The notes: generated by a model from the letters alone, not told the origin. A stretch of DNA of 64,000 nucleotides from Minisyncoccota bacterium (GCA_035299545.1 DATGWJ010000021.1:10090-74089); one strand, 5' to 3'; counted from the first letter of the stretch, positions 17,906-37,666 are shown. Program-made: numbers and translations.

Positions 17906-18010
17906 AAACACGGCATATATAAAATTTTCTTCGCTTATCCCTCTCCGCTCGCAAGCTCGCTCCGGCGCGCCCACACCTACTCAGAAAATTTCATATATGC
18001 CGTGTTTTTT
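17906..18010 (+). repeat. composite hairpin element, copy A: AT-rich 25-bp stem enclosing a 52-nt GC-rich core
   Basis: Stem AAACACGGCATATATAAAATTTTCT pairs with AGAAAATTTCATATATGCCGTGTTT (one mismatch). Core TCGCTTATCCCTCTCCGCTCGCAAGCTCGCTCCGGCGCGCCCACACCTACTC. A-run before and T-run after. Confidence 0.8.
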
Positions 18011-18056
18011 ATATGGATATTTTCTTTGTATTTGACTTATATGCTAAAATAAGAAT

Positions 18057-18983
18057 ATGTACGAATTAATCATTTTAGGAGGTGGTCCTGCTGGCACAGC
18101 TGCCGCAGTATATGCTGCCCGCAAACAATTAAAAACAGCTATTATCACAAGTGATTTCGGTGGCCAATCTATGGTCTCTGAGAAAATCTTTAACTGGATC
18201 GGTACTCCTGAAATACCTGGAGTAGATCTAGCTTCTAATTTCAAGAAACACGTTCTTTATTACAAAGGACCATATTTAGATGTAATAGAAGGAGAAAAGA
18301 TTACTTCAGTAACAAAAAATGATAATGTAATTACAGTTAAGTCCGAATCTGGTAAAGAATACACTTCGAAAGCTCTTATCATAGCAACTGGTAGTGGACG
18401 CAGAAAATTGGAAGCAATCAACGCAGATACTTTTGAAAACAAAGGAATTACTTACTGCGCATCTTGCGATGGTCCTTTGTTTGCGGACCAAGATGTCGTT
18501 GTTATAGGTGGAGGCAATGCTGCATTTGAGACATCCGCTCAACTTCTCGCCTATTGCAAGAGTGTAACTTTAATACACAGAAGTGAAAACTTCCGTGCAG
18601 ATGAGATAACAGTTAAGAAAATTTTTGAAAATCCTAAATTCAAAGCAATAACAAATTCCGAAGTTGTGAGAGTAGATGGTGAACAGTTTGTAAGCTCTAT
18701 TACTTATAAAAATAAAATTACAGGAGAAACTGGAACTCTTCCTACAGCAGGTATATTCGTAGAGATAGGACAAATACCAAACATTGATTTCGTAAAAGAT
18801 ATAGTCAAAATAGATGATTTTGGCAAGATTGCTGTTGATCCTATGAACCAGATGACTAGTGTAGAAGGTATCTGGGCGGCAGGTGATTGTACAAATGGCA
18901 GATATCATCAGAACAACATCGCTGCTGGTAACGGAGTCGTCGCTCTTGAAGACGCTTACCTTTGGATACAAAAGAATAAATAA
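18057..18983 (+). CDS. trxB: thioredoxin-disulfide reductase
   Basis: GGGPAG FAD motif, redox CASCDG, AAGDCT. Confidence 0.85.
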   Translation: MYELIILGGGPAGTAAAVYAARKQLKTAIITSDFGGQSMVSEKIFNWIGTPEIPGVDLASNFKKHVLYYKGPYLDVIEGEKITSVTKNDNVITVKSESGKEYTSKALIIATGSGRRKLEAINADTFENKGITYCASCDGPLFADQDVVVIGGGNAAFETSAQLLAYCKSVTLIHRSENFRADEITVKKIFENPKFKAITNSEVVRVDGEQFVSSITYKNKITGETGTLPTAGIFVEIGQIPNIDFVKDIVKIDDFGKIAVDPMNQMTSVEGIWAAGDCTNGRYHQNNIAAGNGVVALEDAYLWIQKNK

Positions 18984-18990
18984 GAAACTA

Positions 18991-19101
18991 AAAAACAGGG
19001 TATATATAAAATTTTCTTCGCTTATCCCTCTCCGCTCGCAAGCTCGCTCCGGCGCGCCCACACCTACTCAGAAAATTTCATATATACCCTGTTTCTGTTT
19101 T
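18991..19101 (+). repeat. composite hairpin element, copy B: core identical to copy A, outer stem with compensatory changes
   Basis: The core is 52/52 identical to copy A. The stem AAACAGGGTATATAT.../...ATATATACCCTGTTT carries paired substitutions relative to copy A. Confidence 0.8.
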
Positions 19102-19858
19102 ATATAGTTTGATTTACTAAAATTCCCTCCAATATTTCTAATTCAGATTTTGAATTTGGTTGGAAAATTTCCATCATATTTGAAAGTGGGACACCTTCTA
19201 TTTCCAATCCTTGCTCTTGCGCTAATTTAATTAAGTCAGGAAGATAATATTCTTTTTGAGCATTTTCATTCTTTATCTTATTTATATTATTCCATAACCA
19301 TTCAGCATCAAAAGCATAAATTGCAGGATTAACTTCTTTTATTTCTTTTTCTTCGTCGTTTGCATCTTTAAATTCCACAATTTTCACAATCTTACCATTC
19401 GCATCCCGAACAATTCTCCCTAAATTATAAGCTCCCACTCTCCAATCTTTAAAATCAGGCAATGACACTGTCCCCATTGTAATAACTGCTTTGGACTTTT
19501 CATGAGCATCGATTACATTTGTAATTGTCTCTTTAGAAATGAGTGGTTGATCAGTTGAAATAACAAAGATTGTTTTATGATCAGGGTGAACTTGTGGTTT
19601 TGCAGACATAACTGCATGCCCTGTGCCAAGTTGCTCTTCTTGGTGGGCATATATATTATCCATACCAAAAACTTCAAATATTCTTTCTTTTTTATGTCCC
19701 ACGACAATCACTGGCTTTATAGATAAATCAATTGTCGCTAAAGTATCTAAAATGTGCCTTAAAAATGGTTTCCCTCGAAGCATTGCAAGAGCCTTAGGGT
19801 CGTCGGATTCCATTCTTTTTCCTTTTCCTGCAGCTAAAATAATTATTTGTGTGCTCAT
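19100..19858 (-). CDS. GlmU N-terminal-like sugar-1-phosphate nucleotidyltransferase (no LbH acetyltransferase domain)
   Basis: LAAGKGKRM and LGTGHAV motifs. Confidence 0.65.
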
Positions 19859-19907
19859 ATAATATAAAAAAATTATTTATAATGGCTTTACTTTCTTGTA
19901 AGACCTG

Positions 19908-19980
19908 TGCGCGATACAGGATTCGAACCTGTGACATCGTCAACGTCAATGACGCGCTCTACCAACTGAGCTAACCGCGC
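19908..19980 (-). tRNA. tRNA-Val (anticodon GAC)
   Basis: Folded by hand: acceptor GCGCGGT/ATCGCGC, D arm GCTC/GAGC, anticodon loop TTGACGT, T arm ACAGG-TTCGAAT-CCTGT. Confidence 0.85.
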
Positions 19981-19988
19981 AAATTTTG

Positions 19989-20075
19989 CGGAAGCGGTGA
20001 GATTTGAACTCACGATACGGTCTCCCGTATGCCGCTTTTCGAAAGCGGTGCCTTCAACCGCTCAGCCACGCTTCC
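19989..20075 (-). tRNA. tRNA-Ser (anticodon CGA), long variable arm
   Basis: Acceptor GGAAGCG/CGCTTCC, anticodon loop TTCGAAA, variable stem ATACGG/CCGTAT, T arm GTGAG-TTCAAAT-CTCAC. Confidence 0.85.
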
Positions 20076-20122
20076 ATATAAAACATTAAGTTAGTATACC
20101 GAAACGAGGCTAAATAATCAAT

Positions 20123-20755
20123 TTAAGGTAACTGTCGTACTTCTTTTTGAAGAATGTGACCATCTTCATCTAAGTCGTAAATTAAAACTTGCCCAAAAGG
20201 AAGCTCAACTTTCTCAATATCAGCATCAGAAATATTTTCTATATACTTCATTATTGAGCGACCAGAATTACCATGACATACGACTAAGACATTCTTCCCC
20301 TCTTTTAAAACTGGCAATATTTTATTCAAGAAAAAAGGCACAGACCTCTCGTAAACCATTTTCAAACTTTCTCCATTGGAAATATTGCAATCCCAACCTC
20401 TTCGAATTTTTAAAAATTCTTCTTCCCCTAGTAACTTTTGCATTTCCCATTTATTCTTACCGGTGTAGTCGCCGTAGTCACGCTCGTTTAACTCTTTAGC
20501 TTCTTCGGTAGGAATATCTTTACTTAAAGAACTACCTTCTTGTATGGATTCAAGTGTCTCTTTTGAGCGAACCTGAGCAGAGGTAAAAATCTTATCAAAA
20601 TGAATTCCTTCAACTAACTTTCCCATATTTCTTGCCTGTTCAAAACCAAGTGGAGACAAATGAACATCTACAACTCCAGTCCACTTCCCAAGCTTATTCC
20701 ATTCTGATTCGGTATGCCTTAATAACACAAGCTTTCCTACGTTTTTTGTTTCCAT
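20123..20755 (-). CDS. histidine phosphatase / phosphoglycerate mutase family protein
   Basis: LLRHTESEWN motif (RHG phosphohistidine site). Confidence 0.7.
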   Translation of the reverse strand: METKNVGKLVLLRHTESEWNKLGKWTGVVDVHLSPLGFEQARNMGKLVEGIHFDKIFTSAQVRSKETLESIQEGSSLSKDIPTEEAKELNERDYGDYTGKNKWEMQKLLGEEEFLKIRRGWDCNISNGESLKMVYERSVPFFLNKILPVLKEGKNVLVVCHGNSGRSIMKYIENISDADIEKVELPFGQVLIYDLDEDGHILQKEVRQLP

Positions 20756-20791
20756 TTATATAGTATACAACAAATAGTAAACCCTTCGCTC

Positions 20792-20820
20792 TTGACAAAA
20801 TGAGGCACTTACAATATACT
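20792..20820 (+). promoter_or_regulatory. near-consensus sigma-70 promoter TTGACA-17 nt-TATACT
   Basis: TTGACA at 20792-20797 and TATACT at 20815-20820, with exactly 17 nt between them. Confidence 0.55.
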
Positions 20821-20827
20821 GTGTTCT

Positions 20828-20936
20828 GCTTGGAGAGTTTAGAGAGTATCTCTTCAAAGCCGTTGTTCATTTGTGCTTTGTTCATGTTTTTAGGGTTAAG
20901 GTAAGCGGCTTTCGTTTGACGAAAGCCGCTTTTTTG
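20828..20936 (+). ncRNA. candidate small RNA of about 110 nt (promoter to intrinsic terminator, no convincing ORF)
   Basis: Predicted start just after the TATACT box. It ends at hairpin AAGCGGCTTTCGTTTGACGAAAGCCGCTTTTTTG (20903-20936). No plus-strand gene follows. Confidence 0.35.
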
Positions 20937-20939
20937 TTG

Positions 20940-21237
20940 TCTAAAAAGACAAATAAAAAGCCTCCACGATCAAACGTAGAGGCACATGTAAGGTTAATTA
21001 CCTAGGGAAAGTTTCGTTCAGGTATACGCGCCTACACATTGAACAAATGAAGAAAATTAGATCGGGAAGGTGTACATTGTACCCTATCGCCTTATTTTCC
21101 ATTTCCCAGTGGAACCTTGACTTAATGAGTATATTACTCGGAGGAGGAGGAATGTCAAGGGGAAATTTTTAGTTATCAAGTTCTACAACAAGAGATACTT
21201 CCAGTCTCTTCCCCTTAATGGTATTTAAATATATTGG
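20940..21237 (-). ncRNA. structured 3' region after the RT gene (candidate RT-associated ncRNA)
   Basis: 300 nt with no ORF between the RT stop and a minus-strand terminator (CCTCTACG-TTTGAT-CGTGGAGG plus T run, about 20945-20990). Contains nested helices (AAGGGGA...TCCCCTT; CCTTGAC...GTCAAGG) and a CCTCCTCCTCC tract. Confidence 0.3.
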
Positions 21238-22644
21238 TTAAATTTTTAAGTTATATATATTATTGACTCTATTTATGTGTTTTTGTATAAATTTATATGA
21301 GATAGCTTGTGAAGCTAAAAATCTTTTATGGTGAAATAGAAAATCTGTATGTAAACATTCTTTTGTAATATCTTTTAATAAAGCAAGAAAATACTTTTTT
21401 TGTTTAGTATCTATATTAGAGTATATTTTTTTATAGTCTTTAAAATCAGGAGGGTGGGAAACCAAAAAATCTTTTGTCAAAATAAACTTTATAAGGTCAT
21501 CAATTTTCTTCATCTTTCCATCAGCTTTCTTGAGAGAACTTAGTATAGCTCTAACTAAAGTTCTACCTCCAGACCTCAGGTCTTGCTTGTTCTTTAGATA
21601 AAACTCAATTGCTTTATCTATGTTTTTTGAAGAAACAACATTATTGCTTCCTCCTAGTTGCATAAGTATTTCAAATGCAAAATAATTATTAAATTCAGAT
21701 TTTTTTCTTACATGAACTTTTTTTTGATTCAAATTCAAACCTATCCTCATTAAATAACTAGAGGATCTTGCAATAATGTTTTTTATAACTTCTGTTGATT
21801 TAGCGAATACTACTTGGTCGTCTGCATAACGGAAATATTTTGCTCCTAATTTATCACATAATTCTTTCATTTTTTTGTCATAACTTTGCAGATAGAAGTT
21901 AGCTAGAATACGGGAACATTCTCCAAAGAGATCTTGTGGTAAACCAGCATTTTGATGTACATAAAAATTATTATGCCTATTCCAATATTTAAGAAAATGA
22001 AAAAGTAGATATACAACTTCATTATCTTTTGACTCTATATTGCTTCTTATTATATATTCCAGATGATCCAATCTTACTGAATCATAAAAGTTTGCAATAT
22101 CCAATTCTGCCACATAAGAATTTACATAATCATCAACAGAATATTTATAAATTTTGTTTGTAAAATCACCCCAATTAGCTGCCCATGCTTGTGGGTTAAA
22201 ATTAGTAGATATTTCGTATTCTCCTGACTGTATAAATGTATAATAATCTCCTTCAAATTCTTGTACAGAGATAAATTCTTTATCATAGCTAGATAGATCG
22301 ACTTCTTCCTCTATCTTTGTTTCCCCATTTAAAGACCACCCACCATAAGTTCCCTCTACTCTGTTTTTTGCTATGTATTTTTCTAATTTTCTTGTACAGT
22401 AAAAATAAACACAAAGATCTTCCAATTTAAATACAGGAATTACCCTTAAAACCTGGTTACCCTTATTAGAAATTAAATAATTTTGTGGTGGAGAGGGATA
22501 GTATTCTCTGCTTTTTATTTTTATATACAGATTATTAATTAATCTTTCTTTATTAATTGAGGTATATGGTATTAAAGTATCTTTAAGGTTATGTCTCCAA
22601 AACCCCTTATCTAAACATATTTCCTTAAATTCCTTTTCATTCAT
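21238..22644 (-). CDS. reverse transcriptase (unclassified, 468 aa with a long C-terminal extension)
   Basis: RT motifs 1-7: YPSPPQNYLISNKGNQVLRVIPVF; AELDIANFYDSVRLDHL; GLPQDLFGECSRILANFYL; YFRYADDQVVFA; RIGLNLNQKKVHV. No maturase or endonuclease domain. Confidence 0.85.
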   Translation of the reverse strand: MNEKEFKEICLDKGFWRHNLKDTLIPYTSINKERLINNLYIKIKSREYYPSPPQNYLISNKGNQVLRVIPVFKLEDLCVYFYCTRKLEKYIAKNRVEGTYGGWSLNGETKIEEEVDLSSYDKEFISVQEFEGDYYTFIQSGEYEISTNFNPQAWAANWGDFTNKIYKYSVDDYVNSYVAELDIANFYDSVRLDHLEYIIRSNIESKDNEVVYLLFHFLKYWNRHNNFYVHQNAGLPQDLFGECSRILANFYLQSYDKKMKELCDKLGAKYFRYADDQVVFAKSTEVIKNIIARSSSYLMRIGLNLNQKKVHVRKKSEFNNYFAFEILMQLGGSNNVVSSKNIDKAIEFYLKNKQDLRSGGRTLVRAILSSLKKADGKMKKIDDLIKFILTKDFLVSHPPDFKDYKKIYSNIDTKQKKYFLALLKDITKECLHTDFLFHHKRFLASQAISYKFIQKHINRVNNIYNLKI

Positions 22645-23186
22645 TTAGTATTTTTATCCTTAGAACTTTTTGTTATAGAGCTTTTTGTCCCATCTTCAAA
22701 AGTTCCTTCTAGGGCAATAAAGACATCAGCTGGATGTATGTTTGATTGATCAAAAGCAAGTCTTCTTATTTCTGGCTCAACAAATATCTGAGTTTTGTCT
22801 TTTTTACCTTTTTCTCCAGCGTAGACAACTAATCTTTTTCCTACTTTGGATTCAGTAAGAATTGCTCTGACAAAATACATATTATCTTTTGAATCAGCCT
22901 TGTCTTCTGCAATAGGGATAGCTTCATCATCAAGATTAATAAATTTCATTTTCTTAAACTCTTTGGAATTCAACTTATCAATAATGTAATGTTTTTGAAC
23001 ATTAAATTCTCTAGGAAGAGTATAATTTTTTTCACATTCCTGACATTTTAACCAACAAGCGTGTGGGTTATTTAATATTAAAGAAAGAGAGAGATGATGT
23101 TTAGGGCAAAGAGGTTTTGTATATTCCTCAGATGAGTATTGAACATGCCACTTAATTCCATCTATAATTACATATTGGTCATCCAT
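22641..23186 (-). CDS. zinc-ribbon protein co-transcribed with the RT (181 aa)
   Basis: CPKHH...CWLKCQEC Cys/His cluster. Its stop overlaps the RT start (ATGA), which suggests translational coupling. Confidence 0.6.
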   Translation of the reverse strand: MDDQYVIIDGIKWHVQYSSEEYTKPLCPKHHLSLSLILNNPHACWLKCQECEKNYTLPREFNVQKHYIIDKLNSKEFKKMKFINLDDEAIPIAEDKADSKDNMYFVRAILTESKVGKRLVVYAGEKGKKDKTQIFVEPEIRRLAFDQSNIHPADVFIALEGTFEDGTKSSITKSSKDKNTK

Positions 23187-23192
23187 AATATC

Positions 23193-23546
23193 TTAAAAAT
23201 CATAACCGTTATTACCAAAGTTATAATAACTACTTGTCTGTATACTTTTAACCAAAGTTCCTTTATTTCTACAATCAGGACACTCTTGCTCTTCAAGTTT
23301 AGCCCCTTTTGGAATATCAAAACCCTTTTTTGAGAAATTGCAGTTAGTGCATTCAGTATCTAATTTATAGAATTCTGGGATTTTATCATTCATGAGCAGA
23401 TTATAGCAAATTCTTAATAAAATACAAAAATATTTAGGGTCACTAAGGTATGCTTCGCATTCTATCCCAATGTGGTCACAAGTTACTAAATATTTTTCTT
23501 CAAGTATTCGAAAAATATGTAAGTACTCGCGACCCCAGCTCGGCAA
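23193..23546 (-). CDS. cysteine-rich small protein (117 aa), first gene of the RT operon. Start uncertain, apparently TTG
   Basis: TCDH, ECEAY, CTNC and CPDC pairs. Paralogous segment shared with ORF 25201..25440. Confidence 0.45.
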   Translation of the reverse strand: MPSWGREYLHIFRILEEKYLVTCDHIGIECEAYLSDPKYFCILLRICYNLLMNDKIPEFYKLDTECTNCNFSKKGFDIPKGAKLEEQECPDCRNKGTLVKSIQTSSYYNFGNNGYDF

Positions 23547-23625
23547 TTTTTCTGCTGAAAAATTATGCCTGTGCTTTCACAAAAGCGAAAAAGACTGGAG
23601 CAGTCCAGTCTTTTTAAATTCATGC

Positions 23626-23662
23626 TTTTGTGACCCTAGGGGTTAATAATTGGGGACGGATT
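23626..23662. repeat. degenerate copy of the tRNA-Glu 3' half (att-like footprint), copy 1
   Basis: TTTTGTGACCCTAGGGGTTAATAATTGGGGACGGATT versus the tRNA plus-strand AATTTGTGACCCTACCGGGAATCGAACCCGGATT. Preceded by hairpin GACTGGAGCAGTCCAGTC plus T run, as the tRNA is. Confidence 0.6.
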
Positions 23663-23812
23663 GTGGAGGATATAAAGGTATTTATAAGCTATGTTGATTT
23701 CTTGGTATATAAACACAATAGAAAGCTTGACATATCTACTTTTTTGTGCTAATCTCTAGAAAAGAACTTATTTGAAAATAAACTAATATATTCACTAATA
23801 AATGACAAAGGT

Positions 23813-24577
23813 ATGGGACACAGAACACTTAAAAGGGTGCCATTAAATTTTAATGCACCACTAAACAAAGTTTGGAAGGGATATTTAAATCCGTTTCCAG
23901 GACCACGAGAATGTAATCATTGCAAAGGTAGTGGGTATAATAATGCTACTAGGAAAATTGCAGATGATTATTATGGCCATTACTCTCAAAGAAGTCGTCG
24001 CTGGTGTGATAACATTACACAGGATGAAGTGCAAGCCCTCGTTGATGCTGGTCGTCTTTGGGATTTTACCAGAGTTCCCCTTAATGAAAAACAACTGAAA
24101 GATGTTTTGCCTAATGGCTGGCTTCCGTATGATAATGGAAAAATTCCTACAGCAGAAGAAGTTAACGCTTGGAGTGTTAAAGGTATTGGCCACGACACTT
24201 TTAATAAATCTATTTTAATTGAAACAAGAGCCAAACGTTTACATGTCTTCGGTTATTGTCCTCATTGTAAAGGAAAAGGAGAAACAAAACTTCCAAGGAA
24301 GATGAAAAAACGTTATCAAAACTGGCGGAAACATGATCCTCCACAAGGAGAAGGATTCCAGTTGTGGTCAACTACAACAGGAGGATCACCATTTAGCCCT
24401 GTTTTTGAAAATGCTGAACAACTTGCAGTATGGTGTGCAGATAATGCTACTATTTTTGCAGATTATAAACTAACTGCCAAAGAGTGGCTCCAGGTATTTG
24501 CAGATGAACATGTTCTTGATCTAGAAAGTTCCTGTATAATTGTAGTGAAAAAAGAAGCAGAATTTTGCTTAAATTAA
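23813..24577 (+). CDS. hypothetical protein with two CxxCxGxG zinc-finger motifs
   Basis: CNHCKGSGY and CPHCKGKGE. Own TTGACA-17 nt-TAATCT promoter at about 23737-23765 and a hairpin terminator at 24601-24632. Confidence 0.55.
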   Translation: MGHRTLKRVPLNFNAPLNKVWKGYLNPFPGPRECNHCKGSGYNNATRKIADDYYGHYSQRSRRWCDNITQDEVQALVDAGRLWDFTRVPLNEKQLKDVLPNGWLPYDNGKIPTAEEVNAWSVKGIGHDTFNKSILIETRAKRLHVFGYCPHCKGKGETKLPRKMKKRYQNWRKHDPPQGEGFQLWSTTTGGSPFSPVFENAEQLAVWCADNATIFADYKLTAKEWLQVFADEHVLDLESSCIIVVKKEAEFCLN

Positions 24578-24663
24578 TTGTTCATAAAAATTATTATTCT
24601 CTCCAATGGTTATAAGCCATTGGAGTTTTTTTATTTAAAAACACCCTCTTTTGAGAGTTTTTT

Positions 24664-24701
24664 AATTTGTGACCCTAGAGGTTAGTAGTTGGGGACAGAT
24701 T
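24664..24701. repeat. degenerate copy of the tRNA-Glu 3' half (att-like footprint), copy 2
   Basis: AATTTGTGACCCTAGAGGTTAGTAGTTGGGGACAGATT, followed by a TTGACA-17 nt-TATAGT promoter for the next ORF. Confidence 0.6.
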
Positions 24702-24786
24702 TTAGAAAATATAAGGGATTTTGGGTTTTATATTGACAATTAAATTTAAATCTGTTATAGTGTAATAAATTTTAAATTATACAATA

Positions 24787-25155
24787 ATGAGCAATAAAAT
24801 TGTGCACACAGTAATGACACAGGAAGGTCCCCGGTACAGAGTATGGTCAGATAATAGTGATAGATATGTAAGTCAAATCTTAACAGAAGATGAGCTTATG
24901 TTATTTTCAATTTTAATGGAAATAGAACCACTTCTGATAAATCATTTCTATGATCCCAAATATACTGGGGTAGTACTTGGTCACTGGATTCAGCGAGGAG
25001 AAGTTCTTAAGGATTGGAAGGTTGAATCAGAATTTATACCTGCTGATGATAAAGAGCAGGAAAAATATTCCAATATGGCAAAATCACAAAAAGAATTTCT
25101 ATTAAAAGCTGCCAATCTCTGGGAAGAATTCTTTCTTAATGGAAACATTAAGTGA
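24787..25155 (+). CDS. hypothetical protein (122 aa)
   Basis: ORF with an upstream consensus-like promoter; no motif recognised. Confidence 0.45.
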   Translation: MSNKIVHTVMTQEGPRYRVWSDNSDRYVSQILTEDELMLFSILMEIEPLLINHFYDPKYTGVVLGHWIQRGEVLKDWKVESEFIPADDKEQEKYSNMAKSQKEFLLKAANLWEEFFLNGNIK

Positions 25156-25200
25156 ATAACAACAAATCAAACGAGTATAACTTTTAATAGTGTACTCGTT

Positions 25201-25440
25201 TTATTTTACGTAACGATATACTGGAATTGCAAGTACACTTATTAAACCTAATAGGTTAGGGTCACTTTGGTATGCTTCTTCGCATTCATATTTTACGTGG
25301 TCACAAGTTAGACCGGGACCGCGAGTACGCTTATCGGTCATTACATGACCAGTACACCTTTTCCATTCGTGAGTACACTCACATGGAAAAGGTTTTCGAT
25401 TCCCGGACGCGAGATATGCAGATATCTCGCTTAGGGTCAC
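25201..25440 (-). CDS. cysteine-rich small protein, paralog of ORF 23193..23546
   Basis: GLTCDHVKYECEEAYQSDPNLL aligns to YLVTCDHIGIECEAYLSDPKYF. Chosen over the overlapping plus-strand ORF 25272..25460 because of this paralogy. Confidence 0.45.
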   Translation of the reverse strand: MTLSEISAYLASGNRKPFPCECTHEWKRCTGHVMTDKRTRGPGLTCDHVKYECEEAYQSDPNLLGLISVLAIPVYRYVK

Positions 25441-25481
25441 AAATTAAAAACTCCGACTGAAAGGTCGGCTTTTTTAATTTG

Positions 25482-25553
25482 TGACCCTACCGGGAATCGA
25501 ACCCGGATTACCGGCTTGAAAAGCCGATGTCCTAACCGTTAGACGATAGGGCC
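25482..25553 (-). tRNA. tRNA-Glu (anticodon UUC)
   Basis: Aligns position by position to E. coli tRNA-Glu: GGCCCUAUCGUCUAACGGUUAGGACAUCGGCUUUUCAAGCCGGUAAUCCGGGUUCGAUUCCCGGUAGGGUCA. Confidence 0.85.
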
Positions 25554-25768
25554 AAAATAATTACTAATTAACAATTAAATCAGTAATTGGTAATCATTAA
25601 TTACTTGTGAGTATAGCATTTTTGCTAAAATAATCAAATATTATGAGCGTTTTACCCTTGAAAAGTATGGATATTCTAGCTTGACTTTTTAGATAAAAAG
25701 TGATATAATATACACAAATAACTTGAAAATATAATAAAAATAAATAACGGCCTAGGAGGGCTTACATA

Positions 25769-26266
25769 ATGTCAACTCATACAAAATCACCTACTGACTC
25801 ACATGGAGAAACTAGTACCCCTAATGTAAGTACATCAAAAGTGTTCGCAATTTTTATAGGTATATTTTTTTCTATTATTATTATTATTTCAATAATAATA
25901 ATAATTAATAAGCCTAAAAAACTTAGAAATAACGTAAAAGTTATAGAACAAACAATGGTTAGTAATGTTTCAAAAACTTATGATCTTTCAGATATAAGTT
26001 ATGATTCATTATTAACTTTTGAAGTAAAGAATGGTGAGTTAATAAAAGTAGAACTTACTAATGATTGGTGCCCAATGTGGTCATCTGGAAAAATTAAAAC
26101 CTATGACGACAATAGAATTGAAAGAATTCTTGAGGGATCCAAATACATTAGAGGTCCTATAAGTACCCCTTCTCAAAATTACTTTTTCGTAAATAACAGT
26201 GCCTTTAAAATTACTGTTAAAATAGGAAGATGTAAATCAAAAACTGACTGTAAATTCAATCTTTAA
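25769..26266 (+). CDS. hypothetical membrane-anchored protein
   Basis: Poly-Ile TM helix. TTGACT-17 nt-TATAAT promoter and AGGAGGG Shine-Dalgarno upstream. Confidence 0.5.
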   Translation: MSTHTKSPTDSHGETSTPNVSTSKVFAIFIGIFFSIIIIISIIIIINKPKKLRNNVKVIEQTMVSNVSKTYDLSDISYDSLLTFEVKNGELIKVELTNDWCPMWSSGKIKTYDDNRIERILEGSKYIRGPISTPSQNYFFVNNSAFKITVKIGRCKSKTDCKFNL

Positions 26267-26276
26267 TCTTACTAAA

Positions 26277-28498: not shown

Positions 28499-28518
28499 AA
28501 TTAATTCTTATTTTAATA

Positions 28519-29498: not shown

Positions 29499-29500
29499 AA

Positions 29501-30820: not shown

Positions 30821-31340
30821 ATGTAAATATTATACCATAATGGTGAACACTAGTGGAAATTTTTTCTTCAAATCGGAAGCCTCTTTTTTCAAAAAGTTCT
30901 CTTGCCTCGGCTTCTGGCATCACATGGTGCGGAGCTGGACCCATTCCTCCAAAGGAATCACTCCAATCCACAAGAAGAATTTTCCCACCTTTTCTAAGTA
31001 CACGCTTAGCTTCATCTATAATCCCAATCTTATCTTCCACTTGGAAAAGTACATTGGAAATTATCACAACATCCATAGAATTATCCAATAATTTAGTCCC
31101 TCCACGGCGTTCTATGTCGCCCCAAATACAATCTACGTTGTGTATTCCTAATTCTTTTAAATCTGATTCAAGTTTTTTTACTAAATCTTTCTGAACTTCA
31201 ATAGCATATACCTTTCCACTGTTGCCTACACGAGGACTAATGGCTTTACAATAGAAGCCAGTCCCAGCTCCGAAGTCTGCTACACGCATACCTTCTCTTA
31301 ACCCTAAATGTAGAATATTTGTTTCTGGTTTAGTAAACAT
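30813..31340 (-). CDS. class I SAM-dependent methyltransferase
   Basis: VADFGAGTG SAM-binding motif I. Confidence 0.7.
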   Translation of the reverse strand: MFTKPETNILHLGLREGMRVADFGAGTGFYCKAISPRVGNSGKVYAIEVQKDLVKKLESDLKELGIHNVDCIWGDIERRGGTKLLDNSMDVVIISNVLFQVEDKIGIIDEAKRVLRKGGKILLVDWSDSFGGMGPAPHHVMPEAEARELFEKRGFRFEEKISTSVHHYGIIFTYE

Positions 31341-31380
31341 ATTTATAGGTATATTATACTACAAATAAAATAAACTAGAA

Positions 31381-31483
31381 AGTCCGCTATATGTTCAAAA
31401 TTTCTGAGTAGGTGTGGGCGCGCGCCGAATCCGGTGGATTCGGTAGGGATAAGCGAAGAAATTTTGAATATATAGCGGAGTTT
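31381..31483 (-). repeat. composite hairpin element, copy C (core in reverse orientation; inner palindrome GCCGAATCCRSCGGATTCGGC)
   Basis: Core revcomp is TTCGCTTATCCCTACCGAATCCACCGGATTCGGCGCGCGCCCACACCTACTC. Flanked by stem AGTCCGCTATATGTTCAAAATTTCT / AGAAATTTTGAATATATAGCGGAGT. Confidence 0.8.
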
Positions 31484-31492
31484 CTACAAAAA

Positions 31493-33940
31493 CTATAAGA
31501 ATGTAATAGAAGCAATACTATCCCCTGGGCGGAGCTTCATCACGGTCACACCTTGCGTCTGGCGACCAGAAGTAGGAAGTGAATCCAAACTTACACGGAT
31601 AACTTGCCCTTTCTGAGACACCGCGATAATCTCACTTTCATCACTTACTATTTTCGCAACTATAAGCTTACCTGTCTTAGGAGTAACTTTTGCTGTCTTT
31701 ATACCAGAGCCACTTCTCTTCTGTGTTTTGTATTCTTTAATATTAGTTTTCTTACCAAGGCCATTTGCCGAGAGTGTGAGAATGGATAATGAATTCTCTC
31801 CTTTTGGAATACGATCCACTCCAATGACAAAGTCCCCTTTACCGAGCTTCATAGCACGCACACCTCCAGCACTGCGACCCATTTCTCGGACATCTGTCTC
31901 TTTGAATCTTATTGATTGTCCAAGCGCTGTGGCAAGCATCACATCATCACCTTTTGATATTGGAAGAACAGCTTGGAGTTCATCATCCTTATCGAGTCGG
32001 ATAGCTATCAATCCACTTCTTCGGACATCTTTGAAGCTCTCAGCTCCCACTTTCTTTGTCACGCCCATCTTGGTGACCATCATAAGTGTCTCTACTGTTT
32101 TCTTTGTCTCTTTATCTATAGGCAAAATAGAAGTCACCTTCTCTTCAGCTTCAAGAGAAATGAAGTTCATAATTGATTTACCTTTTGTTGCACGCTTACC
32201 TTCAGGAATATCATACATCTTTATCTGATATGCTTTTCCAAGATTAGTGAAGAATAGCAAATCCGAGTGGGTATTTGCGGATATAAGCATGGTTACGAAG
32301 TCTTCTTCTTTTGGCTCAATATCTATTACACCTACACCTCCGCGCTTCTGTGTGCGGTATTCAGAAGGGTCTGTACGCTTCACATATCCACCCTTAGTGA
32401 ATACGAGTACTGACTCTTTCTCTGGGATAAGGTCTTCTTCGTTTATTGCTTTCACTCCTCCTTTTATAATACGAGTGCGTCTTACATCAGAATATTTTTC
32501 TTTAATATCAATAAGTTCATCTGATATAACTTTCATCATTTTCTTTGGACTTGCAAGCAATGCCTCCAATTCTTTAATTAATTCTTGCTTTTCTTTCAAC
32601 TCAAGCTCCACATTTTTACGTTCAAGTCCAGCAAGTTTCTGCAACTTCATTTCAAGAATAGCTACAGCTTGAAGTTCAGAGAATTTAAATTCTTTCATCA
32701 AGTTTGCCTTAGCCACTTGGGTATCTTTAGATGCACGAATTACAGAAATAACTCGGTCAATATGATCAAGTGCTTTCTTGAGTCCTAGAAGAATATGCTC
32801 TCTTTCTTTTGCTTTTCGTAAATCGTACTCAGTTCGGCGACGAACAACTATCTGACGGTGTGTTATAAATTCACTAAGTAAACTCTTGAGCGAAAGCGTC
32901 TGAGGTACGCCATCCACAAGAGCCACGAGGTTGAAATTGAAAGATTGCTCGAGCTGTGTGTGCTTGTAAATGTAATTCAAAACTTTCTGAGGAATAACTC
33001 CACTCTTAAGGTCTATAACAATGCGAATATCTTTTGTAGATTCATCACGAAGACCTTTTACTCCTTCTAATTTTTTCTCTTGAATAAGAACTGCAATAGA
33101 CTCAATAAGAGCTGACTTATTTACTCTGTAAGGAATAGAAGTAATAATGATTTGGAAAGTATCACTCTTTTGTTCTACTATTTCGGCTTCTCCGCGAGTT
33201 ACAACACCACCACGTCCTGTAGAGTAAGCGTGAAGTAAATCATTTTGTCCATAAACTATTCCACCAATAGGAAAATCTGGACCTTTAATGTATTCCATTA
33301 ATTCTTCAGTGCTTGCATCTTTGTTTTCTATTAAGTGAACAGTAGCATCTACAACTTCACCAAGATTATGAGGAGGAATATTTGTAGCCATACCCACTGC
33401 AATACCCAGAGTTCCATTTAGGAGTAAATTAGGAACAGCTGTAGGCAGAACTACTGGTTCTTTGCGAGTCTGATCATAGTTCGGACGAAAATCCACTGTT
33501 TCTTTCTCAAGATCAAGAAGTAATAGTGATGAGAGTCGAGACATTTTGGCCTCTGTATAACGCATAGCAGCTGCTCCATCTCCGTCGATAGAACCAAAGT
33601 TTCCTTGTCCATGAATAAGAGGATAGCGATAAGAGAAATCTTGAGCCATTCCCACCATAGAATCGTAAACAGCCACATCACCGTGTGGGTGATACTTTCC
33701 GAGTACATCTCCGACTACCGCAGCACTTTTACGAAAACGACTTTGAGAAGTTAAACCCATTTCATACATCGCATACAAGATACGTCTATGAACTGGCTTT
33801 AATCCATCACGAACATCAGGAAGAGCACGGTCAGTAATAACCGACATCGCATAGTCGATGAACGAATCTTTCATCTCTGTACTAATTTCTACAGAAACGA
33901 CATTTATATGATTGTCTTTTTTTTCTTCTTCTTTAGCCAT
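31493..33940 (-). CDS. gyrA: DNA gyrase subunit A
   Basis: [28 protein letters not shown]; 815 aa. Confidence 0.95.
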
Positions 33941-33941
33941 A

Positions 33942-34259
33942 TTATTGATATTCTACCGGAATTAAATCTATCTGCTTTTCTACTTCCACTTCTTTCTTTT
34001 CTTCTTCTTTCTTTATTGAAGGAATTTTCCCAACACTTGCAGTGACATTATTATAAGTGTTCGCAATACTTTGTCCAAATAATTCAAATGGCTTTATCTC
34101 TTCTTCTACAGGTGGAGTACTTTCTTTACTTAATTTCTGGCCAATGCTACTTATCCAAACAAACCCCACAAAAGACATACACAATATCAAAGACCCTACA
34201 AGTATTTGCTTGCGAGTGTCTTCCGATTTAGATTGTAATTTTCTTATATAAGTACGCAT
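33942..34259 (-). CDS. hypothetical small membrane-anchored protein
   Basis: Single TM helix and an acidic/Lys-rich tail. Confidence 0.4.
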
Positions 34260-34263
34260 AAAT

Positions 34264-34923
34264 TTAGGATGTTAATACAACTATTTCCCCTTCTTTACCT
34301 ATCAATTCCTTTGCTTTGATTGTAAGCTTATCCAAAGGTGTTACTTTGTCTTGTCCTGCTTCCTTTAAGAATGCTTTTAATGTCTTCTCATCGTAATCCA
34401 TAGGAATAATAATCTTCGGTTCAAGCGTTGTTGCAAGTTTATATGCTTTTTCAGGGTCAAGCAAGTCATTATTGCCAATTGGTACAAAAAGGATATCTGG
34501 TTCAGCGATTTGCTCTCGAACAGTAGAATTTAATTTTTCATCAGAAATTGCACCCAAGAAACATAAAGAAATATTTTCAATCGTTAGAGAATAAATAGTG
34601 TTGATATATTTCTTCCCTGCAAGCTCTGTCTGAGTCATTATTCCTTTTATGAAAATATCTTTGATTTCGTAATCACCAGGGCCGTTTATTTCAAAAGGAA
34701 CTGTCTCTCCATGTGAGACCATTTCAAAGCCATTGTAGTCAGGATGATTGGTAGTAGAAAGGGCAATATCAGAACCGAAACGAGAGGCTTTTTCTCCATA
34801 TTTTGAGTCCTTACTTATAGGGTTAAATGCAACAGTCAAACTTCCCTGTCCAATCTTAAAGAATTGCTTACCTAGATATGTAATAATCATACCTCTATTA
34901 TACCAAAAATTTACAAAAAACAA
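34264..34923 (-). CDS. MBL-fold metal-dependent hydrolase (UPF0173-like)
   Basis: MIITYLGKQFFKI start and DILFVPIGN pattern of the beta-lactamase-fold hydrolases. Confidence 0.5.
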   Translation of the reverse strand: MFFVNFWYNRGMIITYLGKQFFKIGQGSLTVAFNPISKDSKYGEKASRFGSDIALSTTNHPDYNGFEMVSHGETVPFEINGPGDYEIKDIFIKGIMTQTELAGKKYINTIYSLTIENISLCFLGAISDEKLNSTVREQIAEPDILFVPIGNNDLLDPEKAYKLATTLEPKIIIPMDYDEKTLKAFLKEAGQDKVTPLDKLTIKAKELIGKEGEIVVLTS

Positions 34924-35152
34924 AAGGGCTTTTCTGTTAAAATAACCCTTTTCGCAAGGACTGTCCTTGCGAAATTTAGAGGGGTTGATTTTTGGGAGAA
35001 TATATAGTAGAGTGAGTGTATTATAAGCTCGGTTTGAAGGTTAACCCTTTTTGTGTTTAGTTTGGAAAGCAAAAAGATCTTCAACTGCGCCGCGAAACGC
35101 GGTTTTTTTAGTTCCAAAATATAAATTTATTTATATTTTACAAATTATAGAT

Positions 35153-36292
35153 ATGAAAAAAGAAAATGAAAGTGTTATAGAAAGTATTGCAGAAAATGCA
35201 AAAATTGAATTATCTAGTGTTGGTAAAATGCTAGAAAAAGCAGAAGTTCCTCCTCAAGTGGATGCACTCGTAGAAGGACCTGTTATTTCAATACAAAAAT
35301 CATCTGTATATATTGACCTTACTCCATTCGGAACAGGTATCATTTACGGACGAGAATTTATAAATGCAAAAGATATCATTAAGAAAGTAAACATTGGTGA
35401 TGTTGTTAAAGCAAAAGTAGTTGGGACAGACAACGAAGATGGTTATATAGAATTATCTTTGAAAGAAGCAAAGCAAGCTCTTATTTGGAGTGAAGCGGAG
35501 AAAGCTATTAAGTCAAAGACAACTCTTGAGCTTACAATCAAGGAGGCAAACAAAGGAGGACTTATTCTTGAATGGCAAGGTATAGCCGGATTCCTTCCTG
35601 CTTCTCAATTAAAGAGTGAACACTATCCACGAGTAGAAGATTCTGATAAAGATAAAATATTAAAAGCACTCAAAATGCTTATAGGTAAGCGCATCAATGT
35701 TGTAATGATTTCAGCATTACCAAAAGAAGGCAAACTTATATTCTCTGAGAAAGATAATAATCCAGAAGAGCGCCGCGAGATTGTCGGCAAGTACGCTGTC
35801 GGTGATGAACTTGAATGCATCGTTGCAGGAATTGTTGACTTCGGAGTATTCCTAAAGGTGGAAGAAGGTCTTGAAGGATTAGTTCACATTTCAGAAATTG
35901 ATTGGGGCTTAGTTGAAGACCCAAGAACAATGTTCAAGATTGGGGACAAAGTTAGAGCAAAAATAATTGAAATCAAAGATGGTAAAATTTCCCTTTCAAT
36001 TAAAGCTCTAAAGGAAAATCCTTGGAAAGAATTTGAAAATACACTTAAGAAAGGAGACATCGTCTCCGGAGTTGTTATTAAGTTCAACAAGCATGGAGCT
36101 CTTGTTTCTATTAAGCAAGGAGTTGCAGGTCTTGCACACAACTCAGGATTCGGTTCTGAAGAAAAATTAAAAAAGACTTTGGAATTAGGTAAGACTTATG
36201 ACTTCCAGATTACATTATTCGAACCAAAGGAACAAAGAATGACACTTGTATACTTGGATAAGGATAAAAAAGAAACTGAAGAAGCAAAATAA
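35153..36292 (+). CDS. rpsA: 30S ribosomal protein S1 (multiple S1 domains)
   Basis: Repeated S1-domain signatures: GDVVKAKVVG...; ELECIVAGIVDFGVFLKVEEGLEGLVHISEI; GDIVSGVVIKFNKHGALVSI. Start moved to ATG 35153. Confidence 0.8.
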   Translation: MKKENESVIESIAENAKIELSSVGKMLEKAEVPPQVDALVEGPVISIQKSSVYIDLTPFGTGIIYGREFINAKDIIKKVNIGDVVKAKVVGTDNEDGYIELSLKEAKQALIWSEAEKAIKSKTTLELTIKEANKGGLILEWQGIAGFLPASQLKSEHYPRVEDSDKDKILKALKMLIGKRINVVMISALPKEGKLIFSEKDNNPEERREIVGKYAVGDELECIVAGIVDFGVFLKVEEGLEGLVHISEIDWGLVEDPRTMFKIGDKVRAKIIEIKDGKISLSIKALKENPWKEFENTLKKGDIVSGVVIKFNKHGALVSIKQGVAGLAHNSGFGSEEKLKKTLELGKTYDFQITLFEPKEQRMTLVYLDKDKKETEEAK

Positions 36293-36335
36293 ATTAAAAT
36301 CCCGCTCATACGAGCGGGATTTTAATTTTTCCTAC
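36293..36335. terminator. intrinsic terminator AAAATCCCGCTCATACGAGCGGGATTTT (bidirectional)
   Basis: Perfect stem with A and T runs, between rpsA and the convergent HAD gene. Confidence 0.7.
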
Positions 36336-36946
36336 AAAACAATCTTTTCCAGTTCTTTAATATTACGAACAATGTAATCTGGATTCATTAATTTCAGATT
36401 ATTTTCTGAACACAAACCCCAAGTGACAGCAATCGTTTTTATACCAGCTTTTCTACCTATTGTTATTTCTTGATTTGAATCTCCAATAATAGCTGTTTCG
36501 TTTTCTATAAAATTATTTCTTTTTATTATTTTATATAAAGTCTCCTCTTTATCATGAATTCCTATTTCTATATCATTAAAAATATTTTGTAACCCAAATT
36601 TTTTAATTTCAGGAAGAATACTAATCGCATGATCAGCACTTATAACTATAATATTTTTTCCTTCTTTTTTAAGTTTTTGTATTAAATCAATAATCCCAGG
36701 ATATTCTTTAGGATTAAAATTTTCCATAAGGACTTTTTTGTACACAACATCCTGTTGCTCTTTTGTTAAATCTGGTAAATATTTATTCCAAAAAGTCATA
36801 TATGGCTCACTCCACTCATTTCTTAATTGCTCTAGAGTCATTTTATTAAGACCAAAATACTCAAGCATTTTATTTATAACAATAAAATGACCCATGGAGT
36901 GATCTTTTATAACCCCAGACCAATCAAAAATAATATTTTTTATCAT
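36332..36946 (-). CDS. HAD-superfamily hydrolase
   Basis: IIFDWSGVI motif I and GDSNQEITIGRKAGI motif IV. Confidence 0.65.
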   Translation of the reverse strand: MIKNIIFDWSGVIKDHSMGHFIVINKMLEYFGLNKMTLEQLRNEWSEPYMTFWNKYLPDLTKEQQDVVYKKVLMENFNPKEYPGIIDLIQKLKKEGKNIIVISADHAISILPEIKKFGLQNIFNDIEIGIHDKEETLYKIIKRNNFIENETAIIGDSNQEITIGRKAGIKTIAVTWGLCSENNLKLMNPDYIVRNIKELEKIVL

Positions 36947-36953
36947 AAATTGA

Positions 36954-37541
36954 TTATTGATTATAGATACTCATTGCTTTATCTTTCCCACCAGACGACA
37001 AAACTTCAAGAATTTCGGCTACTTTTTTAGAAATCTTTTTTAATTCCTTTAATTCATCATCTTTAAACTTTCCTAAGAGGAATTTCAATACAGCATCTTC
37101 CCCTTTTGGCTTTCTAATCTTTCCAGATGGAGTGGTCGGAGATATGCCAATGCGAATACGAACGAATTCTTTTGACTTAACTTTTTTAATAACTGATTCT
37201 AGCCCATTATGCCCACCAGAAGAACGATTAAAAGAAATTTTTAAACTTCCAAGAGGTAAATCCACGTCATCATACACAACAACTAAATTTTTTAGTTTTT
37301 TAGGGTTATCAATAACCTGACAAACAGCATTCCCCGAATTATTCATAAATGTCTCTGGTAAAAGAAAATCAAACTTTTCACCTTCTATTTCACCCTTAGT
37401 AGAAAGTGATTTTAATTTCATATTATTTTTCCATTCAGAAAAATCAAAACTCTTTGCGATATTTTCTAAAATTATTCTACCCGTATTGTGTCTGGAGTTA
37501 CTGTATTCCTCTCCAGGATTTCCTAATCCAACGATTAACAT
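36954..37541 (-). CDS. pth: peptidyl-tRNA hydrolase
   Basis: LIVGLGNPGEEYSNSRHNTG. Confidence 0.9.
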   Translation of the reverse strand: MLIVGLGNPGEEYSNSRHNTGRIILENIAKSFDFSEWKNNMKLKSLSTKGEIEGEKFDFLLPETFMNNSGNAVCQVIDNPKKLKNLVVVYDDVDLPLGSLKISFNRSSGGHNGLESVIKKVKSKEFVRIRIGISPTTPSGKIRKPKGEDAVLKFLLGKFKDDELKELKKISKKVAEILEVLSSGGKDKAMSIYNQ

Positions 37542-37565
37542 ATTTTTTATTGTACCACAAAATAT

Positions 37566-37666
37566 AAAAAGGGATAATTAAAATTTTATTCGCTTATCCC
37601 TACCGAATCCGGCGGATTCGGCGCGCGCCCACACCTACTCATAAAATTTCAATTATCCCTTTTTAT
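37566..37666 (+). repeat. composite hairpin element, copy D (core variant with perfect inner palindrome GCCGAATCCGGCGGATTCGGC)
   Basis: TTCGCTTATCCCTACCGAATCCGGCGGATTCGGCGCGCGCCCACACCTACTCA. Flanked by AAAAGGGATAATTAAAATTTTA / TAAAATTTCAATTATCCCTTTT. Sits in the divergent pth/lepB intergenic region. Confidence 0.8.

Follow-up and report, generated by a model that had tools for sequence, protein, structure and literature searches.

Repetitive extragenic palindrome (REP) units are GTAG/CGTC-tagged palindromes of 20–40 bp with a sequence that is conserved within a family (PMC3733652, PMC3333891), and REP elements, bacterial interspersed mosaic elements (BIMEs) and REPINs are accompanied by REP-associated tyrosine transposases (RAYTs, or TnpA-REP), which are Y1 transposases (PMC3733652, PMC3333891, PMC2817692, PMC3116915). 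REPs are high-copy intergenic repeats, placed chiefly downstream of open reading frames where neighbouring genes are unidirectional or convergent; in a REP/RAYT system (REPtron), inverted copies of the repeat flank the RAYT gene, and the RAYT binds and cleaves the repeat in single-stranded form. Here we analysed a 64,000-nucleotide (nt) stretch of DNA from a Minisyncoccota bacterium (GCA_035299545.1 DATGWJ010000021.1:10090-74089; hereafter, the window) and found that four hairpins of around 100 nt are members of an undescribed repeat family—family 1—in ultra-small Paceibacterota/Nomurabacteria of the Candidate Phyla Radiation (CPR). Comparison of related loci shows a conserved module, predicted to fold strand-specifically, that is exchanged, inverted, gained and lost over short evolutionary scales, whatever the direction of the neighbouring genes. 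The genomes of CPR bacteria (Patescibacteria) are tiny and are thought to be poor in repeats and regulatory RNA; to our knowledge, almost nothing has been described of their non-coding DNA. Family 1 is a well-defined and strongly constrained CPR non-coding family that occupies gene ends beside core genes such as ftsZ, gyrA, trxB and pth, with turnover between close relatives and a coincident local gene inversion.

Family 1 resembles REP, BIME and REPIN elements in being a short, GC-rich, intergenic hairpin repeat that is found mostly downstream of open reading frames, in both orientations and as one of several families in each genome. The conserved 5′ segment of its folding strand contains a GTAG, the predicted fold is specific to one strand, as would be expected of substrates handled as single-stranded DNA, and RAYT-like genes flanked by inverted palindromes, as in REPtrons, occur in the same clade. 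The differences are that the unit is a 51–52-nt module in which the internal loop is invariant and the hairpin varies, set within locus-specific arms of 19–30 bp; that GTAG lies 12–14 nt from the hairpin; that no RAYT gene is flanked by family-1 cores; and that the density is low (4 copies in the 64-kb window and around 12 exact-core matches in the 732-kb metagenome-assembled genome (MAG) JBAZQY01), not hundreds. Because unit size, hairpin conservation and RAYT flanking fail the published definitions (PMC3733652, PMC3333891), family 1 is REP-like in behaviour, but is not REP. The ends of IS200/IS605 insertion sequences and of their gene-less derivatives, palindrome-associated transposable elements (PATEs; PMC6006769), similarly combine a hairpin with adjacent single-stranded ‘guide’ segments that are recognised on one strand only; such elements have neither defining terminal inverted repeats nor target duplication, and their seamless excision would leave a bare hairpin. 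However, IS200/IS605 elements carry a pair of dissimilar subterminal hairpins and insert on the 3′ side of a fixed tetra- or pentanucleotide, whereas family 1 has one hairpin, its apparent target is the dyad of a palindrome, and no TnpA- or TnpB-bearing parent was found in the family-1 loci.

Integron attC sites also conserve structure while varying in sequence, use one folded strand as the substrate and lie at gene 3′ ends. They keep the outer R″/L″ and L′/R′ boxes and vary at the centre, which is the inverse of the family-1 profile, and they occur in cassette arrays beside an integrase, whereas the window copies lie beside ftsZ, a trxB-like gene, gyrA, pth and lepB. Correia/NEMIS, ERIC and RUP elements are intergenic repeats of around 100–150 nt that form long transcript hairpins and can affect termination and mRNA processing, but they have conserved terminal repeats and target duplications, whereas family-1 ends are locus-specific. 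Fungal mitochondrial GC clusters and double-hairpin elements are small GC-rich palindromes, in several families, scattered through an AT-rich, compact genome, with nested insertions, presence or absence between relatives and no known mobilising enzyme. They share with family 1 the GC-rich modules, the multiplicity of families, the nesting and the presence/absence differences, but they belong to another domain of life, have no sequence relation to it and are not typically found at the dyad of long palindromes.

Four copies in the window

On the strand on which the initial annotation wrote the element (the written strand), each copy reads variable arm, TCGCTTATCCCT, variable hairpin (P2), GCGCGCCCACACCTACTC and complementary arm; the two arms form the stem P1. 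Direct inspection placed copies where that annotation had put them: at 17906–18007 (copy A), 18993–19094 (copy B), 31376–31486 (copy C, with the written core on the − strand) and 37562–37668 (copy D). Their parts are as follows; arms are unstranded and, for cores, the strand given is the purine-rich strand that is predicted to fold.

17906–17930, left P1 arm of copy A, AAACACGGCATATATAAAATTTTCT, beginning 8 nt past the ftsZ stop codon
17931–17982, − strand, core of copy A; on the + strand, box TCGCTTATCCCT at 17931–17942, P2 region at 17943–17964 and box GCGCGCCCACACCTACTC at 17965–17982
17983–18007, right P1 arm of copy A
18993–19017, left P1 arm of copy B, after the trxB-like gene
19018–19069, − strand, core of copy B
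19070–19094, right P1 arm of copy B, abutting the stop codon of the convergent nucleotidyltransferase gene
19100–19858, − strand, nucleotidyltransferase gene, convergent neighbour of copy B
31376–31405, left P1 arm of copy C
31406–31456, + strand, core of copy C (GAGTAGGTGTGGGCGCGC...GGGATAAGCGA), downstream of gyrA (− strand)
31457–31486, right P1 arm of copy C
37562–37589, left P1 arm of copy D, 21 nt from the pth start codon
37590–37640, − strand, core of copy D, with a perfect 8-bp P2 (CCGAATCC-GGC-GGATTCGG), in the divergent pth/lepB spacer
37641–37668, right P1 arm of copy D

The shared 13-mer TTCGCTTATCCCT and 19-mer GCGCGCCCACACCTACTCA each have exactly four exact matches in the window, and the 19-mer has none in any shuffle. 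Arms of 25–30 nt, spaced 51–52 nt apart, differ between copies while remaining 93–96% complementary, and the folding z-scores of the four copies, relative to shuffles, are −6.8 to −9.6. The cores are the GC-rich islands that had been described (63–67% GC, compared with 34% for the whole window). Copies A and B are identical at 98 of 102 positions, including the entire core; the 4 differences are two changes in the left arm of copy B, both compensated in the right arm, and are precisely the stem changes that had been singled out. Under independent substitution, we estimate the chance of two such compensated pairs to be around 1e-5. Of the perfect inner palindrome reported as a P2 variant, only copy D carries the exact sequence GCCGAATCCGGCGGATTCGGC; copy C departs from it at one flanking base and in the loop. 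Pfam agrees with the gene assignments (FtsZ, a TrxB-like reductase, GyrA, Pth and LepB) and adds a nucleotidyltransferase and a methyltransferase as neighbours.

Distribution and novelty

Scans with the exact 19-mer recovered 29 stretches from one-genome-per-species contigs and a further 66 from metagenomes, which gave 79 distinct family-1 copies after the removal of duplicates. All complete copies found by these scans are in MAGs labelled Paceibacterota, Nomurabacteria or ‘Saccharibacteria’. The window FtsZ is 100% identical to an NCBI third party annotation (TPA) protein from Paceibacterota. At L019 (compared loci are given L numbers), the sole locus with the Saccharibacteria label that was compared, FtsZ and TrxB are 74–85% identical to the Paceibacterota proteins. 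We therefore dropped the idea that the family is shared between phyla: some TPA MAGs have a doubtful ‘Saccharibacteria’ label, and family 1 is probably confined to one clade of the Paceibacteria/Nomurabacteria type. The 19-mer is thus a specific marker, as every complete copy recovered with it is in a genome of this type.

At the gathering threshold, Rfam 15 identified only 3 tRNAs in the whole window; in the region 17880–19130 at E ≤ 10 there were only spurious matches to long-hairpin miRNAs (20–24 bits, against cut-offs of >200), and twelve related loci gave tRNAs only. No known family, ribozyme or riboswitch in Rfam 15 matches family 1 on either strand. The initial annotation had named a match to a known family, or stems without covariation, as outcomes that would tell against it; no Rfam family matches, and stem covariation is present (below). 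Full-text literature searches returned nothing relevant on the core sequences, on structured RNA, miniature inverted-repeat transposable elements (MITEs) or REP in CPR bacteria, or on RAYT in CPR bacteria. Scanned viral contigs contained 0 matches to the cores of family 1 or of family 2 (a sister family described below), and therefore give no phage link for these cores.

One further match, at L010 6236–6270 in a Chloroflexi MAG (OLB15), comprises only the 3′ box and the start of an arm (GCGCGCGCCCACACCTACTCAAAAATTT), with no 5′ box and in GC-rich surroundings; it may have arisen by chance, be a fragment, or reflect a chimera from binning or assembly.

Stems, core and folding strand

P1 has a mean length of 23.5 bp (arms of 19–30 bp), and 31 of the 79 stems are perfect. 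The nine base pairs that adjoin the core follow the pattern AAAWTTTNT; further out there is a G-rich/C-rich segment and then an A-run/T-run. Within the inner 13 bp of P1, 94% of cells are paired, compared with 68% in shuffles and 37–54% in slid controls, and 10 of the 13 pairs have changed on both sides, whereas in their outer 10–18 bp the arms of different copies are unrelated. There are several P2 subtypes, many of which retain a 2 × 2 UC/UC internal loop with covarying flanking pairs (G-C to C-G, GC/GC, GGC/GCC). A conserved core within stems that stay paired despite sequence change is, as had been argued, unlike a MITE defined by terminal inverted repeats. It had also been taken to imply selection on a structure plus a core. 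The core is indeed conserved and the stems covary, but templated correction between the arms, instead of selection on an RNA helix, is a serious possibility, because the stems are nearly pure Watson–Crick (A-T to T-A swaps predominate, with few intermediates) and long, perfect palindromes are common in these genomes.

Stem mismatches on the written strand are A.C in 40 cases and G.T in 11 (p = 6e-5; 24:11 when two recurrent sites are removed). The bias points the same way whether the context is co-directional (13:3), anti-directional (4:2) or divergent (6:0), which argues against transcription-linked mutation bias as its source in this comparison of gene contexts, not of replication direction; the GC skew of the window tracks gene orientation and replication direction is not readable from it. 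On the purine strand, the A.C mismatches become G.U pairs, the UC/UC loops become tandem sheared G.A pairs and the loops read GAA. These mismatches, wobble pairs and tandem G.A pairs show the putative folding strand to be the purine-rich TGAGTAGGTGTGGGCGCGC…AGGGATAAGCGA, the complement of the written strand.

RNAalifold applied to the purine strand extends P1 by GAGU/GCGA, which form a 4-bp helix (P1a). Its pairs 9-24 and 10-23 are canonical in 30 of 30 junction variants, including one G-C to C-G swap, and in 3 junction variants the tandem G.A is replaced by U-A/C-G. The variants UCGU/GCGA and UCCC/GGGA are fully Watson–Crick; elsewhere the U.G pair becomes U-A or C-G, and the G-C pair becomes G.U or C-G. 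Outside P1a there is an invariant purine-rich internal loop, with AGGUGUGGGCGCGC on one side and (A/U)AGGGAUAA on the other. The folding strand of all 79 copies has GTAG within GAGTAGG, a count that holds by construction because the 19-mer query contains the complement of GTAG; six core variants that lack the exact 19-mer kept GTAG in four cases and lost it in two. This GTAG precedes P2 by 12–14 nt on the 5′ side and contributes its G and U to P1a. At L015, an extra hairpin is tolerated at one junction of the family-1 element.

A hairpin module of around 30 nt (GCCCGAC…TCAGTCAT…GGCAGGC) is nested in the family-1 core at L015 1757–1790, and the same module is nested, at a different position, in a family-2 core at L008 2607–2640.

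Gene context and turnover

Copies are intergenic, and most begin a few nt from a stop codon. Relative to the written strand, the 55 contexts that could be resolved among the 79 are ++ (25), −− (12), divergent (10) and convergent (8); tandem and convergent contexts account for 45 of the 55. The co-orientation of the core with its upstream gene holds within the window, as had been noted, but not across the 79 copies, in which the orientation bias is merely 2:1. An A-run precedes the hairpin and a T-run follows it, with T-runs following on both strands, and the distance to the next gene is around 10–45 nt. A consensus terminator scan calls no family-1 copy (the ‘loop’ is 51 nt), and promoter scans near the copies gave only chance-level matches, with no conserved promoter-like signal outside the hairpin. 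The initial annotation had suggested a terminator or a 3′ untranslated region (UTR) RNA that is read in the direction of the gene. The data do not support this: the predicted folding strand is the complement of the one that was written, it is antisense to both neighbours in the largest context class (25 of 55), and the core is inverted relative to the same flanking genes at orthologous loci.

Comparison of orthologous loci separates the history of the core from that of its arms. At one locus shared by L045, L057, L066 and L086, a 27-bp stem is kept with three P2 subtypes, and the core of L086 is inverted relative to the flanks. After ftsZ, the window, L005 and L019 have a common stem segment (ATATATAAAATTTT) but differing P2 types, and the cores of L005 and L019 are inverted relative to that of the window. 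The boxes are 100% conserved between genomes with FtsZ and TrxB just 75–85% identical. Because the same P2 subtype can recur between unrelated arms, at many loci and across several genomes (the inner stem differs even within a subtype), the core appears to travel, or to be converted, independently of the arms.

The same gene ends can also carry something else. After ftsZ, L101—the closest relative, with an FtsZ that is 97% identical—and L097 have the same plain palindromic terminator, L105 has another plain terminator, and L096 and L102 have copies of families 3 and 4, respectively. After trxB, copy B in the window corresponds to a family-2 element in L005 and a family-4 element in L097. L029 does not have copy D and has a family-1 copy between fmt and hpf. 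In the window these convergent genes overlap by 4 nt (41130–41133), with their stop codons in a common TTAA and no spacer; in L029 they are separated by a 95-nt family-1 hairpin, the left arm of which supplies the last codons and the stop codon of fmt.

At L098 (3001–6100, compared with 16723–19858 of the window), the orientation of trxB with respect to ftsZ and the nucleotidyltransferase gene is flipped. Gene-end hairpins and a repeated AATCGGTCCAACCGATT mark the boundaries of the flipped segment. Palindromes may mediate local inversions, as at L098.

RAYT-like genes in the same clade

L105, the FtsZ of which is 92% identical to that of the window, encodes a 235-amino-acid Y1_Tnp protein (Pfam PF01797, 2.8e-8) with a best NCBIfam match, below the cut-off, to REP-associated tyrosine transposase. 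The RAYT-like Y1 transposase genes that we located are:

L105, 248–955
L072, 4180–4836
L106, 1501–2151
L107, 1501–2175

The L072 homologue is 45% identical to the L105 protein; L072 matches a MAG with at least 11 family-1 copies, and the top match of its RAYT-like protein (P0121, Candidatus Paceibacterota) is 100% identical. There are more than 7,700 RAYT-like homologues; those with a named source are from Nomurabacteria/Paceibacterota, and one has been named RayT by the Joint Genome Institute. The genes of L072, L106 and L107 are flanked by inverted NNNN-AGGCAAGACCT-N′N′N′N′ palindromes, which have a conserved AGGCAAGACCT tip and a lower stem that covaries from genome to genome (CTACAGG, CTGCTAGG, ACATAGG, CGTGAGG…); the L105 gene is flanked by the palindrome GGAAGTCSGACTTCC. 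Both kinds of palindrome have a conserved tip and a variable lower stem, the same design as family 1.

Within the L105 gene, at 431–450, the flanking palindrome recurs as GGAAGTCGGACTTCC.

A tblastn search of the family-1 loci with the L105 protein found a RAYT-like gene only in L072, 1.8 kb from the family-1 copy, and a phmmer search of the same loci with approximate IS608 TnpA and Escherichia coli RAYT queries, which is a weak test, gave no match. We also considered an autonomous parent, with a gene between two boxes; none was present in around 0.7 Mb of family-1 loci, in which orphan boxes were family-2 copies or chance matches.

Proposed mode of action and alternatives

Our preferred reading, held tentatively and at somewhat less than an even chance, is that family 1 is a REP-like module that works as folded single-stranded DNA at hairpin tips. 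The functional unit would be the GC-rich core of around 51 nt, with the purine strand 5′-GAGUAGGUGUGGGCGCGC-(variable hairpin P2)-(A/U)AGGGAUAAGCGA-3′, set on the tip of a long, AT-rich, locus-specific palindrome. In single-stranded form, the purine strand would make P1 from the palindrome and, extending it, P1a (G.A, A.G, G-C, U.G) from the first and last four bases of the core, a fold that would display the invariant internal loop beside P2. A trans-acting enzyme—the best candidate being the RAYT-like HUH/Y1 transposase of the clade, or a relative—would read this loop, and would cut and rejoin single-stranded DNA there. Hairpin tips could then gain copies of cores, swap them with one another, turn them around or lose them, with the arms left in place and arm complementarity upheld either by selection for folding or by arm-to-arm template switching. 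Effects on the host, such as hairpins at 3′ ends, gene insulation and inversions (for example, the flipped trxB in L098), would be by-products. Of the roles suggested by the initial annotation, the third, a recombination or target site, is nearest to what the data favour, with the folded strand, we infer, being single-stranded DNA that is handled by a HUH/RAYT-type enzyme. If this is true, REP/RAYT biology would reach a new superphylum with a new targeting logic, based on hairpin tips and recognition of an internal loop.

Several points weigh against this proposal. None of the 79 family-1 copies flanks a RAYT-like gene, and the RAYT genes that were examined are flanked by a different palindrome. 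No transposition event was seen, and in no case do non-orthologous loci have the same stem together with the same core. The hairpin of a canonical REP is conserved, whereas here P2 varies and it is the unpaired segments that do not change; in this respect the element looks more like a structured RNA. GTAG does not stand at the foot of P2 but 12–14 nt away. The swapping and homogeneity of cores could be due to gene conversion between copies, with no need for a transposase, and sequence alone cannot separate single-stranded DNA from RNA. Because the G/C polarity of the arms is opposite to that of bare hairpins (below), the arms are not simply ordinary terminators with an insert.

The main rival is a new multi-copy structured RNA made from the purine-rich strand and folding as P1, P1a, internal loop and P2, in which the invariant loop binds a protein, an RNA or a ligand, or is catalytic, and P1 acts as a processing site (for RNase III, for example) and as a terminator. 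Invariant unpaired segments, covarying helices, and G.U and tandem G.A pairs on one strand are the classic pattern of an RNA, and the extra hairpin tolerated at a junction of L015, the T-runs on both sides and the full conservation of the boxes between genomes with diverged FtsZ and TrxB all fit. We nevertheless consider it unlikely: such an RNA would be antisense to both neighbours in 25 of the 55 contexts, with only around 10–45 nt to the next gene and no conserved promoter-like signal outside the hairpin; at two orthologous loci the core is turned around with respect to conserved flanks and stems, which would silence or reverse an RNA driven from outside; close relatives have no element at the same site; the near-pure Watson–Crick stems have undergone A-T to T-A swaps without a stable intermediate; and Rfam has no matching family, ribozyme or riboswitch for either strand. 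As an RNA, the element would represent a new conserved structured class, with an invariant loop of 30 nt to be explained. We think it distinctly improbable that the element is instead a resident, non-mobile part of the host genome—bidirectional terminators or insulators at gene ends, with a host DNA- or RNA-binding protein that recognises the tip, selection that retains each copy in place and cores homogenised by gene conversion. The closeness of most copies to a stop codon, the A-run and T-run on either side, the occupation of the site after ftsZ in three genomes and its filling elsewhere by other core families or plain terminators, as if by interchangeable end modules, would be expected of such elements. 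However, ten copies separate divergent gene starts, a position that calls for no terminator, the composition of the arms is the reverse of that of ordinary terminators, and a simple terminator scan calls none of the copies across their 51-nt ‘loop’. Presence varies between very close relatives, orientation is free, and density is uneven, with 4 copies per 64 kb in one case and around 12 in a 732-kb MAG in another.

Both orientations of the core between the same arms at two orthologous loci, and arms that are perfect inverted repeats of 19–30 bp, would suit an inverton, the core being a segment that is flipped by a site-specific recombinase to alter the expression of a neighbour. We regard this as very improbable, given that the arms differ at every locus and hence offer no single invertase site, that 51 bp is very short for recombinase synapsis, that the core has no promoter-like sequence and the window copies have no adjacent invertase or recombinase gene, that the neighbours are housekeeping genes and that the flips are seen between genomes, not within a population. 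A classical cut-and-paste MITE, moved by a DDE transposase acting on the stem as terminal inverted repeats, is scarcely credible: small, non-coding, multi-copy, intergenic and with long inverted repeats, family 1 has the outward form of one, but its conservation profile contradicts it, with the ends least conserved and the interior most conserved. No target-site duplication is evident, around 0.7 Mb of family-1 loci hold no longer element with a gene between boxes, and the stems are locus-specific even inside one P2 subtype.

It is also conceivable, although somewhat unlikely, that family 1 and its sister families are new in kind, either as modules that, folded as single strands, home to the dyads of long palindromes or as a new multi-copy class of RNA. 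In the DNA form of this proposal, recognition would be through the invariant purine-rich internal loop, not the ends, and a domesticated HUH enzyme would exchange, flip and excise the core; in the RNA form, the same fold would define an RNA class with a conserved loop that binds a ligand or is catalytic. These families would then be the first described repeat or non-coding element system that is specific to CPR bacteria, and would drive terminator turnover and local inversions in their streamlined genomes.

Sister families and bare palindromes

At least three further recurrent core families in related genomes share the architecture of long, variable, complementary stems; none of the three (families 2, 3 and 4) is in Rfam. 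Family 2 has the core CGCTTAACCCTAAAGGGCTCCGACACGA and, having the 5′ box and the AAATT stem motif in common with family 1, looks like a shorter relative of it. Family 3 has an AT hairpin (ATTTTTCTNCTGAAAAAT) followed by a conserved CTCGCGCCGTCGCGCTCC, within variable stems, and family 4 has variable stems of 25–30 bp around a conserved GC-rich core (…GCGCA(A/G)GCC…GAGCA…TTAT…). The initial annotation had listed the regions around 2025–2095 and 48670–48779 as divergent relatives of the four copies: the architecture is the same, but the covariance model of family 1 misses both, and they belong to families 3 and 4. Members and comparison hairpins are listed below; window features are unstranded.

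L005 5290–5345, family 2, after trxB
L008 2261–2316 and 2570–2658, family 2
L028 7127–7182, family 2
L052 1708–1763, family 2
Window 2003–2095, family 3; L001 has a family-1 copy at the orthologous position
L096 1760–1880, L098 6120–6235, L076 around 3000–3130, L091 around 3100–3250 and L019 around 3540, family 3
Window 48659–48794, family 4, with a 26-nt AT-rich stem and an 84-nt GC-rich core
L102 3745–3835, L097 5245–5345, L013 around 654, L074 around 967 and L094 around 2547, family 4
Window 5346–5393, ordinary gene-end hairpin, a perfect 24+24-nt palindrome with no loop
Window 42720–42769, ordinary gene-end hairpin, a perfect 25+25-nt palindrome between convergent genes
Window 61979–62010, bare hairpin CAAAATTTTTC-cgtc-GAAAAATTTTG, with an AAAWTTT tip motif like that of family-1 stems and no core

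The family-4 copy of L102 is a shortened version of the window variant. A hammerhead was considered within 48670–48779 (CUGACGAG...GAAA) and was rejected: the motif is missing from the relatives, and the whole window has no hammerhead match at the Rfam gathering threshold.

The compared loci and the window, around 0.76 Mb together, contain 107 distinct bare gene-end palindromes of at least 14 bp, which are long, perfect and either loop-less or small-looped. On the 5′ side, family-1 arms have more G than C in 46 copies and more C than G in 22, and bare hairpins have the reverse (17 compared with 71). Insertion of a core into a resident terminator was rejected on this opposite polarity and on the lack of similarity between the window arms and the terminator that follows ftsZ in L101 and L097. 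Four bare hairpins have an AAAWTTT tip and no core (window 61979–62010, L002 6976–7006, L050 1615–1645 and L021 895–926; for example, CAGGCCAAAATTTT-ttc-AAAATTTTGGCCTG), and may be unoccupied or vacated sites.

Some palindromes extend into neighbouring genes. In the window, the outer 8 nt of a hairpin at 25432–25489 are the 3′ end of a tRNA (25482–25553, − strand) and its inverted copy, and at L098 6120–6313 the stem around a family-3 core consists of 18 nt duplicated from the 3′ end of the adjacent tRNA, together with an inverted copy of them. Because palindromes extend into tRNA 3′ ends and into the codons of fmt, a mutational process that builds and perfects them, probably arm-to-arm template switching, is suggested. 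Such switching could produce ‘covariation’ without selection on RNA, which would fit the predominance of A-T to T-A swaps and the small number of intermediates.

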